Shown in pieces: positions 40,523-54,127 of a stretch of 64,000 bases of DNA. Below the pieces are notes generated by a model. That model was not told where the DNA came from, made no database searches, and saw only the letters and a list, made by a program, of their open reading frames with translations. How positions within the stretch are numbered: the first letter of the stretch is position 1; the number at the start of each line of letters is the position of its first letter. The position numbers and the translations under genes were made by a program. The DNA lies in NCBI GenBank assembly GCA_944391075.1, contig CALXSG010000001.1, positions 6,381-70,380 on the forward strand, given 5' to 3'. Source of the stretch: an uncultured Rickettsiales bacterium (lineage in GTDB: Bacteria > Pseudomonadota > Alphaproteobacteria > Rickettsiales > UBA1997).

Positions 40523-41188
40523 TTAATTTTCAGCGGAAATAATAAATACTAATGATAATACCGAAAATATATAAGCTTGAATTATACTACTTATAAAGGT
40601 AAGTATACTTAAAAATATTGGAAAACCAAGAGCTAAAAAAGCTATTTGAGAAACAACAGCTGTAATAATCATGCCACTCATCATATTTCCATATAACCTA
40701 ATTGCTAATGCACAATTACTAGAAATATCACTAATTATATTCATAACAAGCATAACTGGTGTTGGTTTTAAATATTTTTTTAAATAACCTAAAACACCAA
40801 CTTGTCTAATACCATATATAAGTCCCAAAGAAACTGTGACAATTACAATAGCAATATTTGTTGATAATGAAGCTGTTGGCGAATAAAAATAAGGAATTAA
40901 TTGTAATAAATTTGCACCCAATATAAATAAAAACATAGTTGCAATAAAAGGAAATACAAAATTTATATCAACTTTTCCCATCTTTTCAACTTGATCTTTT
41001 ATACCATAAATCAGTATTTCAAAAAAGTTTTGTAATTTACCAATATTTTTTTCATGAGTTAAAGCTAATCTTAAAATTATTGCAACTGTAATAACAAAAG
41101 CCATCAATATCCAAGTGAATAGAATTGTATTATTTATCTTGAAAAAGCCATTTTGCCATACAATTATTTGATCTGGTGTAATATTCAT
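40523..41188 (-). CDS. atpB: F/N-type ATP synthase subunit a
   Basis: LAIRLYGNMMSGMII contains the essential stator Arg motif. The protein is polytopic. I place the start at MNITPDQ (ATG 41188-41186), which forms an ATGA overlap with the stop of the upstream small ORF. The track ORF extends to 41275. Confidence 0.88.
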   Translation of the reverse strand: MNITPDQIIVWQNGFFKINNTILFTWILMAFVITVAIILRLALTHEKNIGKLQNFFEILIYGIKDQVEKMGKVDINFVFPFIATMFLFILGANLLQLIPYFYSPTASLSTNIAIVIVTVSLGLIYGIRQVGVLGYLKKYLKPTPVMLVMNIISDISSNCALAIRLYGNMMSGMIITAVVSQIAFLALGFPIFLSILTFISSIIQAYIFSVLSLVFIISAEN

Positions 41189-41451
41189 TTTTTTGTCCTT
41201 TGAATTTTTGCTAAAATTATAAAAAATACTTTCGCAACAGTAAAACCAATCAGCATTAAAATAGCATTTTGCCACTTTTTATCTAAAAATACATATACTA
41301 TTGTTGCAATAATGAATAATCTAATGAGTAAACTTGATATAGCAACTGCTACACTTTTTTTCTCCAATATTTTTTTAATAGTCCACTTTAATGCTAAAGA
41401 ATTTAATATTCCAATCATTAAACCAATAAAAATTAAAAAAATACTATACAT
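41185..41451 (-). CDS. Small ATP-synthase-associated membrane protein, AtpR-like (N-ATPase) or AtpI-like
   Basis: 88 aa with 3 hydrophobic helices and an Arg inside a helix (SSLLIRLFIIATIV). It is translationally coupled (ATGA) to atpB. Confidence 0.55.
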   Translation of the reverse strand: MYSIFLIFIGLMIGILNSLALKWTIKKILEKKSVAVAISSLLIRLFIIATIVYVFLDKKWQNAILMLIGFTVAKVFFIILAKIQRTKK

Positions 41452-48698: not shown

Positions 48699-49601
48699 TT
48701 ATTTATTTTTCTTCTTTTTCTTAGCTACACTATAACCTGTAACAACATCTAACAATTCATTGGTAATTGTACTTTGTCGTTTTTGATTATATTCTAAGTT
48801 CTTAGTTCTAATTAAATCGTTAATATTATTTTCAGCATTTTGTAATGTTAATAATCTATTTTTTTGTTCACTTGCTATTGAATTTACTAATGCATCATTT
48901 AAACCAACAAATATATATTGTTTTAATAAATCAACAACTAACGTTTTTGTATCTATTTGCCAATAAGGAATATTATTTGTGGGCCATACTTTTTTTTGTG
49001 CATTCTCTAATATTTTTTTATCTATTGGTATTAATCTAGTTTTTGTAAGTGTACCATTCATCGTGTCATCATTAGCTGTATAATATAAAAATACTTTATT
49101 AATGGTTTTTTCTTCAATTTCTTTCTCTATTACAGCTAATAATTCATAAATTGTATTTGAAATATTTTCAATAGAATTAGGAACTGGTATTGTTTTAAAT
49201 ATTTTTAATTTTGTATTACTTAGCAACATACTAAGTCTCTCACCAACAACAATTACTTTATTTTCATCAGTATTTTGTATATCATCTATGGTAAAATTAG
49301 CTATTTTATCATTAAATCTTCCACATAAACCTTGATTAGAACCGAAAACAACAACTAAATTTTTAGCTTTTTTATTTTTAGATTGTCCTATAAATTCTAA
49401 TTCATTTATATTGATTTTATCGTTATGCATCATAATAGCTTGTAAAGCCAACTCCACATTACTTTTATATGTATAAAGAATCTTAACTATTTTTTCATAT
49501 TTTTTAATATTAGCACCGGACAAAGCCTTCATAGTACTAACAACTTGTTTAATACTTTTTGAGGTGTCCAGTGTCTTTTTTAAATTATCTAATGTTTCCA
49601 T
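48699..49601 (-). CDS. atpG: ATP synthase gamma subunit
   Basis: SIKQVVSTMKALSGANIKKYEK (gamma N-terminal helix) and C-terminal QKRQSTITNELLDVVTGYSV. Lies directly downstream of atpA. Confidence 0.88.
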   Translation of the reverse strand: METLDNLKKTLDTSKSIKQVVSTMKALSGANIKKYEKIVKILYTYKSNVELALQAIMMHNDKININELEFIGQSKNKKAKNLVVVFGSNQGLCGRFNDKIANFTIDDIQNTDENKVIVVGERLSMLLSNTKLKIFKTIPVPNSIENISNTIYELLAVIEKEIEEKTINKVFLYYTANDDTMNGTLTKTRLIPIDKKILENAQKKVWPTNNIPYWQIDTKTLVVDLLKQYIFVGLNDALVNSIASEQKNRLLTLQNAENNINDLIRTKNLEYNQKRQSTITNELLDVVTGYSVAKKKKKNK

Positions 49602-49606
49602 AGCTA

Positions 49607-51127
49607 TTATTCAACATTTTTATATTTTTTAACTGTTTCAGTAGCTTTTGATATAAAATTCTTTATTTGATCTTCTGATAATTTTTCATTAGATCTTATA
49701 GTTTTTACCATATCAACAAAATCTTCTTCCATTAAAGCTACAACTTCATCTTGAACTTCTTGAATTTTACTTAATTCTATTCCATCAAATATACCATTAT
49801 TTATACATATAAATAAAGCAACTTGTCCTTCCGTGGATACTGTTTGAGATTTAGGTTGTTTTAAGATTTCTCTAATTAATTTTCCTTTATCTATTGTTCT
49901 TTGTGTTTCTTCATCTAATTTAGTAGCAAATCTTGAAAACATTTCTAATTCTTCAAATTGCGAATATTCAATACCAATTTTTCCAGCAACTTGTTTAAAT
50001 GCTTTTAACTGTGCTTTGCCACCAACCCTTGATACTGATTTTCCAGCATCAATTGCAGGTAATAAACCTTTTTGAAAATTAACAGGTGATAAATATAATT
50101 GTCCATCTGTAATAGAAATAACATTGGTTGGTATATATGCAGAAATGTTTTCACCTTCTGTTTCAATAATAGGTAAACTTGTAATATTTCCACCACCTAA
50201 TTCATCTTTTAAATTTGCACTTCTTTCCAATAATCTAGAATGTAAATAGAATACATCGCCAGGGTAAGCTTCTCTACCTGGTGATTTTTCTAATAAAAGT
50301 GAAATTTCTCTGTAAGCTTTTGCATGTTTAGATAAATCATCATAAACTATTAAAACAGATTCACCTTTTTCACAAAAATATTCAGCCATTGATGTTGCAG
50401 CATATGGAGCAATATATTGCATACCAGGCATACTTGTTGCATTAGCATTAACAACTATTGTATAATCCATTGCTTCATTAACCTGTAATGTATGAATAAC
50501 ATTCATAACGGCAGAATCTCTTTGTCCAATAGCACAATAAATACAAATAACATCTTTTCCTTTTTGATGTAAAATTGTGTCAAGAGCTATTGACGTTTTA
50601 CCTGTTTGTCTATCACCAAGTATTAATTCTCTTTGTCCTCTTCCAATAGGAATTAGACAATCAACAATTTTAATACCAGTTTCAAGTGGTGTATCAACAG
50701 TTTTTCTATCTAACACACTTTTTGAAGGTCTTTCAGCTGGTAAAAAATCTTTTGTTTTTATTTGTCCTTTATTATCCAAAGGTCTTCCTAAACCATCAAC
50801 AACTCTTCCTATTAATTCTCTGCCCACAGGTATTTGTAGGTATTTATTTGTTCTTTTAACTTCATCTCCAACTTTAATATCGGTTGTTTTATCTAACAAA
50901 ACAACTTTTATAATATTATCTTCCATGCCAGCTACAAAACCAATATATTTATCATTTATAATGACACCTTCATCAAAACCAACTTTTGTTAAACCTTCTA
51001 CTTTAATAATAGAATCTTCAACACTATGAACAGTGCCAGCTTCTTTCTCAACTAATTGTGAATTAATTTCACCTAAATTACTAAGAATTTTTTCTTTAAA
51101 GTTGATAGATAAATTTTTATTTTCCAT
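49607..51127 (-). CDS. atpA: ATP synthase alpha subunit
   Basis: GDRQTGKTSIALDTI (Walker A), VLIVYDDLSKHAKAYREISLLL and GSITSLPIIET-like NITSLPIIETEG. Confidence 0.95.
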   Translation of the reverse strand: MENKNLSINFKEKILSNLGEINSQLVEKEAGTVHSVEDSIIKVEGLTKVGFDEGVIINDKYIGFVAGMEDNIIKVVLLDKTTDIKVGDEVKRTNKYLQIPVGRELIGRVVDGLGRPLDNKGQIKTKDFLPAERPSKSVLDRKTVDTPLETGIKIVDCLIPIGRGQRELILGDRQTGKTSIALDTILHQKGKDVICIYCAIGQRDSAVMNVIHTLQVNEAMDYTIVVNANATSMPGMQYIAPYAATSMAEYFCEKGESVLIVYDDLSKHAKAYREISLLLEKSPGREAYPGDVFYLHSRLLERSANLKDELGGGNITSLPIIETEGENISAYIPTNVISITDGQLYLSPVNFQKGLLPAIDAGKSVSRVGGKAQLKAFKQVAGKIGIEYSQFEELEMFSRFATKLDEETQRTIDKGKLIREILKQPKSQTVSTEGQVALFICINNGIFDGIELSKIQEVQDEVVALMEEDFVDMVKTIRSNEKLSEDQIKNFISKATETVKKYKNVE

Positions 51128-51135
51128 ATAATAAC

Positions 51136-51882
51136 CTACTTTTTATCATTGATTTTATTATCTATGTTAGATATAAAGTTTGTTGTTAATTCTTTTACGT
51201 TCCAAGATAAAATATAACTTTTTGCTTTTAACTCAATTCCTAAAATTAAATCTTTATCAATATCACATTGAATATCTTTAAATTTAAAACCTTTTTCAAC
51301 AAGAGAATCTTTAATAAAATTCTTTTGTTTTGTGGTTAATTCATCATTAGAATATATATGTATATTATCAAGATTTAATTTATTTACAGAATCTACTTTA
51401 TCAGCAGTCAATTCGTTAACTTTTTCTATGAAATTATTAACTATTTCATCTTGAAGTGTTGAATTAGCAAGAACTTGAAGAATATTATTAGAATATTCAA
51501 CAAATAAGTCTGATAAATCTTCATTGAAATTTTCTACAAGATTTTTTTGTTCTAAATCTAAATAGTCATTAAATTTATCTTTTTTTGCAGAAATATCATC
51601 TTTCGCTTTTTGTAATTCTTCTTCTTTAAATTTTTTAATATCAGCAATAGCTTTTTTTCTAAGAACAATATTTTCTTTTTCAACTTCTTGTAATTTATTA
51701 AAATATTCTTCTTTAAGTTTTTCACTTTCTTCAAGTTTTTTTTCGGTTTCTTCAATTTTATTTTTAATATCTTCTCTTCTCTTTTCCATAGTTTTTAATA
51801 CAGGTTTATATAAAAACTTATTTAAAAGAAAAATTAGGACACCAAAATTTATAAATTGGGCAATTATTGTATATAATTCCAT
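51136..51882 (-). CDS. atpF: ATP synthase subunit b with a delta/OSCP-like C-terminal extension (b-delta fusion)
   Basis: N-terminal anchor plus FLYKPVLKTMEKRREDI and a long charged helix typical of b. The C-terminal DIDKDLILGIELKAKSYILSWNVKELTTNF resembles the delta C-terminus (vD..LiGG..i..gd..iD.S....L). Length 248 aa. Confidence 0.8.
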   Translation of the reverse strand: MELYTIIAQFINFGVLIFLLNKFLYKPVLKTMEKRREDIKNKIEETEKKLEESEKLKEEYFNKLQEVEKENIVLRKKAIADIKKFKEEELQKAKDDISAKKDKFNDYLDLEQKNLVENFNEDLSDLFVEYSNNILQVLANSTLQDEIVNNFIEKVNELTADKVDSVNKLNLDNIHIYSNDELTTKQKNFIKDSLVEKGFKFKDIQCDIDKDLILGIELKAKSYILSWNVKELTTNFISNIDNKINDKK

Positions 51883-51897
51883 AATTTTACCTTAAAA

Positions 51898-52170
51898 TTA
51901 TAATTTTTCTAATAAAGTATTCCAGAAAGGATTAGCAAATAAAAGAATCATAGAAATAACAAGACAATAAATAGCTGTTGATTCAACCATAGCCATACTC
52001 ATAAACAAAAGTTTTGTAATATTGCCGGCTTCATCTGGTTGTTGAGTAATAGAATGCACAGCTTCTCTAGCTATACTAGCTTCACCAAATGAAGAACCAA
52101 GAGAACCCATACCCATTGAAAATGCAGCTGAAAAAATTGAAATTGATGCTACAATTGTTAAACTATCCAT
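51898..52170 (-). CDS. atpE: ATP synthase c subunit with a Na+-binding-type signature
   Basis: 90-aa hairpin. Loop motif QQPD. E30 in helix 1. E63-S64-T65...Y68 in helix 2 (AMVESTAIYCLV). Spacing relative to the loop Pro matches the Ilyobacter tartaricus Q32/E65/S66/T67/Y70 positions. Confidence 0.9.
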   Translation of the reverse strand: MDSLTIVASISIFSAAFSMGMGSLGSSFGEASIAREAVHSITQQPDEAGNITKLLFMSMAMVESTAIYCLVISMILLFANPFWNTLLEKL

Positions 52171-53533: not shown

Positions 53534-54127
53534 ATGTCTTTTTTAGAAATAAGGTTTCCAGAATCAATAGCTTTTAATTCTTCTTCAATATTAGAATTCA
53601 ATACAACAATTATAAAATCTAAAAATGGTTATGAACAAAGAAATATTAATTGGAATACAAATAAAATGAAATTTAATATTATTAATGGTATTAAAACAAA
53701 AGCCGAATTAGATGAAGTAATAACATTTTTTAGAAATGTCAGGGGGGCTGGTTATGGTTTTAGATTTAAAGATTGGACTGATTATCAAATAGATAATCAA
53801 TATTTAGGTCTAGGTGATGGAGTAACAAAAGAATTTCAATTAATAAAATCTTATAGAGTCAGTGATAATATTGTTTATTATAGAAAAATCACAAAACCTG
53901 TTATATCAACTGTAAGAGTTTTTATTAATGATATAGAAAGTAAAGATTTTAATATTGATTTAACTACTGGTTTAATTACTTTAAATACAGTACCAGAAAT
54001 AGATAGTATTATAAAAGCAAATTTTGAATTTGATGTTCCTGTACGTTTTGAAAATGATATAATGGAAATTACTATGAACTCTATTAATAGTGGAAATATT
54101 AAAGATATTACTTTAATTGAAATATAA
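53534..54127 (+). CDS. DUF2460 / GTA ORFg12-like phage-derived protein
   Basis: FLEIRFPESIAFNSSSILEFNTTIIKSKNGYEQRNINWNTNKMKFNI...FFRNVRGAGYGFRFKDWTDY matches my recollection of the DUF2460 block (F.EvrFP..is.gs.GGP.f.T.iv...sG.E.Rn..w...r..ydv....r....l..l..FF.ar.Gr..gFRfkD..D). Confidence 0.75.
   Translation: MSFLEIRFPESIAFNSSSILEFNTTIIKSKNGYEQRNINWNTNKMKFNIINGIKTKAELDEVITFFRNVRGAGYGFRFKDWTDYQIDNQYLGLGDGVTKEFQLIKSYRVSDNIVYYRKITKPVISTVRVFINDIESKDFNIDLTTGLITLNTVPEIDSIIKANFEFDVPVRFENDIMEITMNSINSGNIKDITLIEI

Follow-up and report, generated by a model that had tools for sequence, protein, structure and literature searches.

A predicted N-ATPase, the sole rotary ATPase detected in a reduced gut lineage labelled Rickettsiales

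The analysis of the window (the whole stretch of 64,000 nucleotides examined here) and of the genome to which it belongs reveals a rotary ATPase whose c subunit carries all side-chain ligands of a Na+ site at structurally defined positions and whose genes, judged from their sequences, are those of an N-ATPase. We found no second rotary ATPase in the 95%-complete assembly, and we consider it probable, on balance, that the enzyme works as an ATP-driven Na+ pump in a fermenting cell, a reading in which both the preference for Na+ over H+ and that for pumping over synthesis are predictions. The E...ESTxxY motif is an already published N-ATPase signature and is not itself new. The motif alone is ordinary, and it is the setting, an N-ATPase without a main ATP synthase, that gives it weight in a field that still disputes whether N-ATPases act as pumps or as synthases and whether they couple to Na+ or to H+. 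By the definition of Dibrova et al. 2010, the N-ATPase is “always the second” beside a typical F- or A-type ATPase (PMC2881411), and the passages of a 2026 preprint that bear on this point describe N-ATPases as “almost always” accompanied by a main ATPase, with exceptions that those passages leave unnamed. In the literature searched, we found no paper linking an N-ATPase to Rickettsiales or gut MAGs, no description of an N-ATPase as the sole rotary ATPase of a genome, and no description of a break-up of the otherwise strictly conserved N-ATPase operon.

The c subunit and its ion-binding site

The c-subunit gene and the codons of its ion site, which were read directly and placed by alignment, are as follows, with the corresponding residues of Ilyobacter tartaricus given in brackets unless another species is named.

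51898..52170, minus strand: atpE, N-ATPase c subunit of 90 aa, a two-helix hairpin with the ion site (open reading frame and profile matches)
52081-52083, minus strand: E30, the helix-1 carboxylate (Q32; E32 in Fusobacterium nucleatum)
52036-52044, minus strand: loop residues Q43-Q44-P45 (RQP)
51976-51984, minus strand: E63-S64-T65 (E65, S66 and T67)
51967-51969, minus strand: Y68 (Y70, hydrogen-bond donor to the Glu)
Further correspondence: M61 (V63, a backbone carbonyl ligand)
Further correspondence: V62 (A64)

The 90-aa protein encoded by 51898..52170 (minus strand) reads MDSLTIVASISIFSAAFSMGMGSLGSSFGEASIAREAVHSITQQPDEAGNITKLLFMSMAMVESTAIYCLVISMILLFANPFWNTLLEKL. It scores 52.9 bits against Pfam ATP-synt_C (cut-off 24), and its best NCBIfam matches are NF009998 at 113.8 bits and TIGR03322 alt_F1F0_F0_C at 113.2 bits (cut-off 130.85). 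A HMMER search of all PDB chains aligned the protein end-to-end with the Na+ rings of Acetobacterium woodii (4BEM), F. nucleatum (3ZK1), and I. tartaricus (1YCE), and the same search also aligned it with H+ rings from cyanobacteria and chloroplasts. The pairing with 3ZK1 sets E30 against E32 and MVESTAIY against VAESTGIY. A MAFFT alignment of the window’s c subunit with those of I. tartaricus (the sequence used being 89/89 identical to 1YCE_A), F. nucleatum, A. woodii (c1), Spirulina, spinach, and three N-type relatives ran free of gaps from helix 1 to the C-terminus, and the E, E+1, and E+2 positions of the two H+ rings read E-A-L.

The original prediction had placed E30 at the position of I. 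tartaricus Q32, and E63-S64-T65 and Y68 at those of E65-S66-T67 and Y70, and had read these residues as a full Na+ ligand set; it proposed an alignment with characterised Na+- and H+-binding c subunits as the check. Both the placement and the ligand set hold in that alignment, in which the five side chains fall, without gaps, on the ligand positions of the rings solved from I. tartaricus and from F. nucleatum. In the F. nucleatum crystal, the ligands are Glu32, Glu65, Ser66, the backbone oxygen of Val63, and a water that Thr67 and the backbone oxygen of Ala64 keep in place, while Tyr70 and Ser66 form hydrogen bonds to Glu65 (PMC3692424). Dibrova et al. 2010 (PMC2881411) put the share of Pfam c subunits that combine a helix-1 Glu with ESTxxY at about 1%, and this rarity marks the combination as a family signature and not a chance match. 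The helix-1 Glu had also been put forward as a feature of N-ATPase and Fusobacterium-type c subunits, which agrees with E32 of F. nucleatum and with the N-ATPase signature of Dibrova et al.

Two solved rings lie close to the protein described here and differ from it in their setting. The F. nucleatum F1Fo c11 ring (3ZK1/3ZK2; PMC3692424) has identical ion-site residues and aligns without gaps at 42% identity; its gene belongs to a canonical F-type operon with delta, neither of which is present here, and the enzyme makes ATP from the Na+ gradient that a Na+-pumping decarboxylase supplies, whereas no such pump was found in this genome. The c11 ring of I. tartaricus and Propionigenium modestum (1YCE, 2WGM) shares the ligand positions and ESTxxY at 40% identity but carries Gln in helix 1, where this protein has Glu, and it belongs to a canonical F-type enzyme that acts as a synthase.

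The remaining subunits and the identity of the enzyme

The other ATPase genes lie partly in the window and partly on other contigs of the same genome (G000).

51136..51882, minus strand: atpF, long N-type b subunit of 248 aa with a delta-like C-terminal part (TIGR03321 alt_F1F0_F0_B, E=1.8e-35, residues 4-233)
49607..51127, minus strand: atpA, N-type alpha subunit of 506 aa (TIGR03324, 674.7 bits, top match; alpha tree)
48699..49601, minus strand: atpG, N-type gamma subunit of 300 aa (TIGR03323, E=4.8e-70, versus 1.1e-34 for the canonical gamma model)
41185..41451, minus strand: atpR, N-ATPase-specific small membrane subunit of 88 aa (PF12966 AtpR, 38.7 bits, cut-off 26; TIGR03165, E=4.6e-7)
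40523..41188, minus strand: atpB, a subunit of 221 aa from the ATG at 41188 (TIGR03306 altF1_A, top match, E=2.2e-60)
G000:C18:3356-4714 (L004): atpD (beta), alone between unrelated genes (genome search; TIGR03305 best)
G000 contig C2 (L006 1085-1743): atpC (epsilon) and an 88-aa membrane ORF (genome search)

The c gene heads a tight minus-strand cluster, c-b-alpha-gamma, with gaps of 15, 8, and 5 nt, after which comes a convergent MscK-like gene, and the start of atpB overlaps the stop of atpR. Where the published N-ATPase trait is a single operon, atpDCQRBEFAG, the genes of this genome occupy four loci (beta; epsilon with the possible Q; R-a; c-b-alpha-gamma) in which the sub-orders of that operon are kept. 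In the sister genus represented by G011, of the same GTDB family, the nine genes are contiguous in the order beta-epsilon-Q-R-a-c-b-alpha-gamma, and the ancestor of the clade would have carried all nine in one atpDCQRBEFAG operon, later scattered here. The fragmentation seems specific to the window’s genus and, in part, to G018 and G020, while in G011 and G013 the beta gene adjoins c. A TTGACT-17-TAAAAT site stands 33 nt upstream of atpE, and since the counts of promoters and terminators equal chance expectation in such AT-rich DNA, we do not treat it as evidence.

All nine reading frames are intact in this genome. Beta keeps its P-loop (GGAGVGKT) and catalytic Glu (GVGERSREG), the alpha P-loop is likewise kept, and the a subunit retains the stator Arg within AIRLYGNMMSG. 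AtpR has its intramembrane Arg in SSLLIRLFII, with one clear Arg here versus two in the family description. The candidate for AtpQ is the 88-aa membrane ORF directly after epsilon (L006 1085-1351), for which we found neither a family match nor BLASTP similarity to the ORF in the Q position of G011.

Against NCBIfam, subunits c, b, alpha, and gamma match the alternate F1F0 models best or tied-best (TIGR03322, 03321, 03324, and 03323, respectively), beta and a match best with TIGR03305 and TIGR03306, and the top match of epsilon is the generic NF004871, with TIGR03166 scoring nearly as well. All scores against the alternate models (TIGR03305/03166/03306/03322/03321/03324/03323/03165) fall below the curated cut-offs, as with alpha (674.7 versus 750.5), beta (689.2 versus 752), and b (122.9 versus 224.7), and such low scores are to be expected from the 25% GC and fast evolution of this genome. 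AtpR has been called a tell-tale sign of N-ATPase operons (Dibrova et al., PMC2881411). No match to OSCP/delta (PF00213) was found in the genome, and residues 112-225 of the b subunit give a weak match to the delta model (E=0.0048). In a maximum-likelihood tree of 81 alpha subunits, which was a quick search over rows of odd amino-acid composition, the ten alphas from the gut lineage group together as a single clade with an SH-aLRT support of 100. A long branch, itself fully supported, divides the tree: the clade falls on its N-ATPase side, away from the canonical alphas that belong to the same family and order. Within that side, it stands as the sister group of every N-type alpha sampled, on a branch that is long and compositionally odd, so that no donor of the operon can be named.

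AtpR, the missing delta, the alpha tree, the synteny, and the best scores against alternate models together identify the enzyme, at the level of sequence, as an N-ATPase. Of the two types, N-ATPase and Fusobacterium, that the original prediction had named for the helix-1 Glu, the first is borne out by AtpR, the absence of delta, the alpha tree, and synteny; a Fusobacterium-type canonical F-ATPase is ruled out by the absent delta, the presence of AtpR, and the place of alpha in the N-type clade. Counts of the motif at 75 distant loci, all of them EST, were dropped, as MVESTAIY had been a search pattern and the choice of loci was biased.

The comparison with the published N-ATPase (Dibrova, Galperin & Mulkidjanian 2010, PMC2881411) thus brings out a close likeness in the two helix Glu residues with ESTxxY, AtpR, the lack of delta, the long b, the alpha clade, the gene order (kept whole in the sister genus and as sub-orders here), and the predicted function as an ATP-driven Na+ pump. 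The differences concern copy number, the published enzyme being defined as “always the second” while the one described here is the only rotary ATPase found; gene organisation, with four loci in place of one operon, scores below the TIGRFAM cut-offs, and an AtpQ candidate unrecognisable by sequence; and host, this one being from a reduced, anaerobic gut lineage labelled Rickettsiales and not a marine or halotolerant organism.

Ion transport in the genome and distribution among relatives

The assembly is a 1.16 Mb MAG of 35 contigs with ~25% GC, 95% complete and 0.07% contaminated, of a lineage labelled Rickettsiales. A genome search returned a single copy each of beta, alpha, a, c, and epsilon. 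The atpD model found only beta, alpha, and a weak third match on contig C8, which is the transcription terminator Rho and not a V-type ATPase. Direct searches of this genome found no Rnf or Nqr, no beta subunit of a Na+-decarboxylase (OAD), no membrane pyrophosphatase (H+/Na+-PPase), and no NuoD or hydrogenase large subunit, and a scan against Pfam of ~58 predicted polytopic membrane proteins, selected with a crude transmembrane filter, found no respiratory subunit among them. These absences refer to a 35-contig, ~95%-complete MAG, and a second ATPase or pump could sit in the missing 5%. Energy parasitism as a source of ATP is unsupported, the TLC ATP/ADP translocase not being found in the genome.

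The genome encodes an AgcS-family Na+:alanine symporter (312 bits, cut-off 272.65), a CPA-type cation/H+ exchanger, one MFS carrier, one EamA protein, AcrB, SecDF, and MgtE, as well as pyruvate kinase. The search for Na+-cycle genes suggested in the original prediction had a mixed yet coherent outcome, Nqr and Rnf not being found while the AgcS-family symporter, the CPA exchanger, and an MrpD-like protein were. The last of these belongs to a four-gene membrane cluster at G000:C13:13249-17970 (L064, L065, L032, and L033; 195, 312, 486, and 487 aa), in which one protein is MrpD/NuoN-like (PRK12662, E=1.9e-29, far below the cut-off) and the 13-TM neighbour and two small proteins match no family. 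The cluster is possibly a pared-down antiporter of the Mrp type, or else a system not yet described.

We searched 40 related genomes for N-type c, OSCP, NuoD, COX1, and cytochrome bd. A strong N-type c match (E <= 1e-26) occurs in five genera, namely the window’s own and those of G011, G013, G018, and G020; within the window’s genus it is present in 7/8 species, the eighth genome being 69% complete and without a c match. A strong N-type c and OSCP never occur together across the 40 relatives. Across the five N-type genera (12 genomes), OSCP was not found except for a weak match in G013 that sits next to the c gene and probably represents the end of b, and neither COX1 nor cytochrome bd was found. 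NuoD gave one weak match in these 12 genomes (G003:C55:5494-6189, E=4e-37), in a frame of 552 aa that may encode the large subunit of a [NiFe]-hydrogenase; no other respiratory match came from that genome. All other genomes of the family and order carry OSCP, NuoD, and COX1, except G015 and G023; the latter (89% complete) has COX1 and cytochrome bd, with OSCP and NuoD not found. Read from the other side, the OSCP-bearing genomes have NuoD and COX1 in all cases but G013, itself an N-type c carrier. In G015, which belongs to the same family (~0.7 Mb, 94% complete), we found no c subunit, OSCP, NuoD, COX1, or cytochrome bd, and the rotary ATPase may have been lost altogether.

Each of the five N-type genomes tested (G008, G011, G013, G018, and G020) has a single beta, and where N-ATPases are by definition “always the second”, this genome has one gene set only. 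In the family, the N-type enzyme stands in place of the F-type synthase, and only where a respiratory chain was not found. The genomes being kin, this replacement may reflect a single event, and we make no statistical claim from it. Such a distribution is the pattern expected if N-ATPases are pumps, unable to replace a synthase and sufficient once none is needed.

It is conceivable, though we place it somewhat short of an even chance, that this gut clade labelled Rickettsiales has lost both oxidative phosphorylation and the canonical F1Fo enzyme and that it now relies on the N-ATPase alone, as rotary ATPase and as primary Na+ pump. Were this so, the membrane would be energised chiefly by sodium, at the expense of fermentative ATP, and the clade would be a natural demonstration of N-ATPases as housekeeping ion pumps and not synthases, and this in an order mostly known for an aerobic energy metabolism like that of mitochondria.

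The ion site itself shows both constancy and change within the clade. Across 11 species of the five genera, E30, E63, and Y68 do not change and E+1 always carries a hydroxyl, while the residue at E+2 is Thr in this genome and G005, Ser in G001, G007, G008, G011, G018, and G013 (the last with the motif ETS), and Cys in G003, G004, G006, and G020 (L073-L076). The Cys of these four related species suggests that a hydroxyl at E+2 is not strictly required in the clade. This series of Thr, Ser, and Cys in close relatives offers a natural test of the role of the hydroxyl in ion selectivity, and the enzyme is a compact nine-gene system for testing Na+ versus H+ selectivity.

Predicted direction, coupling ion, and further genes

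As an ATP-driven Na+ pump, the enzyme would offer in each c subunit a two-carboxylate Na+ site of the kind seen in the F. nucleatum c11 ring, from which the geometry is taken. E30 would be held protonated and donate one oxygen to the Na+, which would be bound by E30, the backbone oxygen of M61, E63, S64, and a water held by T65, with Y68 locking E63. Driven by the alpha3beta3-gamma-epsilon head, the c ring would turn against the a subunit and its stator Arg, and the long b would stand in for b and delta. The enzyme would hydrolyse ATP from glycolysis and fermentation, expel Na+, and set up a membrane potential. The resulting sodium gradient would be used by the symporter of the Na+:alanine family, and the CPA exchanger and the MrpD-like module would turn it into a proton gradient on which AcrB, SecDF, and the MFS carrier could draw. 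A large ring, if like the c17 ring of Burkholderia pseudomallei with its 5.7 ions per ATP (PMC5376962), would carry many ions for each ATP, against a gradient of modest size, which would suit a fermenter. A role as ATP-driven Na+ pumps was predicted for N-ATPases by Dibrova et al. (PMC2881411). We infer the direction of hydrolysis from substrate-level ATP together with the lack of any other rotary ATPase, respiratory chain, or recognisable primary Na+ pump among the genes found. The earlier proposal of a sodium-coupled enzyme, possibly a Na+ pump, accordingly finds backing in the ligand set for its first part, and for its second the absence of a detected respiratory chain or other primary Na+ pump favours, on present sequence data, the direction of pumping.

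The coupling ion is the point on which the closest challenge arises. Na+ coupling is likely in our estimation, and we regard as unlikely, if still a serious contender, an N-ATPase coupled to H+, in which E30 is protonated and E63 carries a proton under the conditions of the cell. The only N-type c-ring tested biochemically, the c17 ring of B. pseudomallei, is H+-specific (PMC5376962): it belongs to the same family and has two carboxylates (E30/E61) and Tyr at E+5, and Na+ gave no specific protection from NCD-4 labelling. That ring, however, reads E30/E61-T62-M63/Y66, with Met and no hydroxyl at E+2, and operates beside a normal F-ATPase, whereas the site described here has the full E/E-S-T/Y set and matches the F. 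nucleatum ring crystallised with bound Na+ at both pH 5.3 and pH 8.7 (PMC3692424), and the H+ rings aligned show E-A-L instead. The replacement of Thr or Ser by Cys at E+2 in four species of the clade leans towards protons, as does the report, in a 2026 preprint, that a Synechocystis ring with every ligand but that at E+2 switches between H+ and Na+ with pH. A proton gradient is what AcrB, SecDF, and an MFS carrier as a rule depend on, but the genome also holds a Na+-coupled symporter family and cation/H+ exchangers, which count against coupling to H+.

Two further readings keep the same genes and change what they do. A Na+-coupled enzyme acting mainly as an ATP synthase would require an unrecognised source of the gradient, for example the MrpD-like cluster or an electrogenic exchange of substrate and product, and seems to us rather improbable. 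Synthesis of ATP in vesicles has been described for the N-ATPases of Acaryochloris/Aphanothece and Methanosarcina (M. mazei) in the part of the 2026 preprint that cites Takabe and colleagues, and the four-gene membrane cluster at the coordinates given above and the NuoD/hydrogenase-like gene of the congener G003 might be taken as traces of such a source. This genome itself, however, yielded no NuoD or hydrogenase large subunit, and Rnf, Nqr, an OAD-type decarboxylase, a membrane PPase, complex I, a haem-copper oxidase, and cytochrome bd were not found in it; the canonical synthase is replaced by the N-type enzyme only in genomes without a respiratory chain, and Dibrova et al. argued that N-ATPases cannot act as substitute synthases (PMC2881411). 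The scattered genes could also be decaying remnants that form no functional complex, a view that the break-up of an otherwise highly conserved operon into four loci and the HMM scores below all curated cut-offs might invite. We give it very little credence, since the nine frames are intact with their P-loops, catalytic Glu, stator Arg, and ion-site residues, the genes are retained in at least 11 species of five genera with invariant site residues, and low HMM scores are what the base composition and rate of evolution of this genome lead one to expect. The ATP-driven Na+ pump therefore remains the reading that we prefer.

Some other genes of the window and the genome were recorded alongside the ATPase. 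An ORF of 341 aa at 60044-61069 (plus strand of the window) has a GKGGAAYPT motif and appears to resemble the NuoF/RnfC nucleotide-binding family; neither Rnf nor complex I was found in the genome. Five P-type ATPases are encoded at G000:C4:48518-51196, C4:74492-77179, C5:7313-9958, C21:11912-14563, and C1:12154-13998, comprising one PMCA-type Ca2+ ATPase, two MgtA-type Mg2+ ATPases, one P2-type below every cut-off, and one ZntA-like protein, and five such primary pumps in a 1.16 Mb genome are many compared with its very few secondary carriers. A 197-aa ORF at 53534-54127 (plus strand of the window) appears to resemble the DUF2460 / gene-transfer-agent family, which is typical of Alphaproteobacteria.
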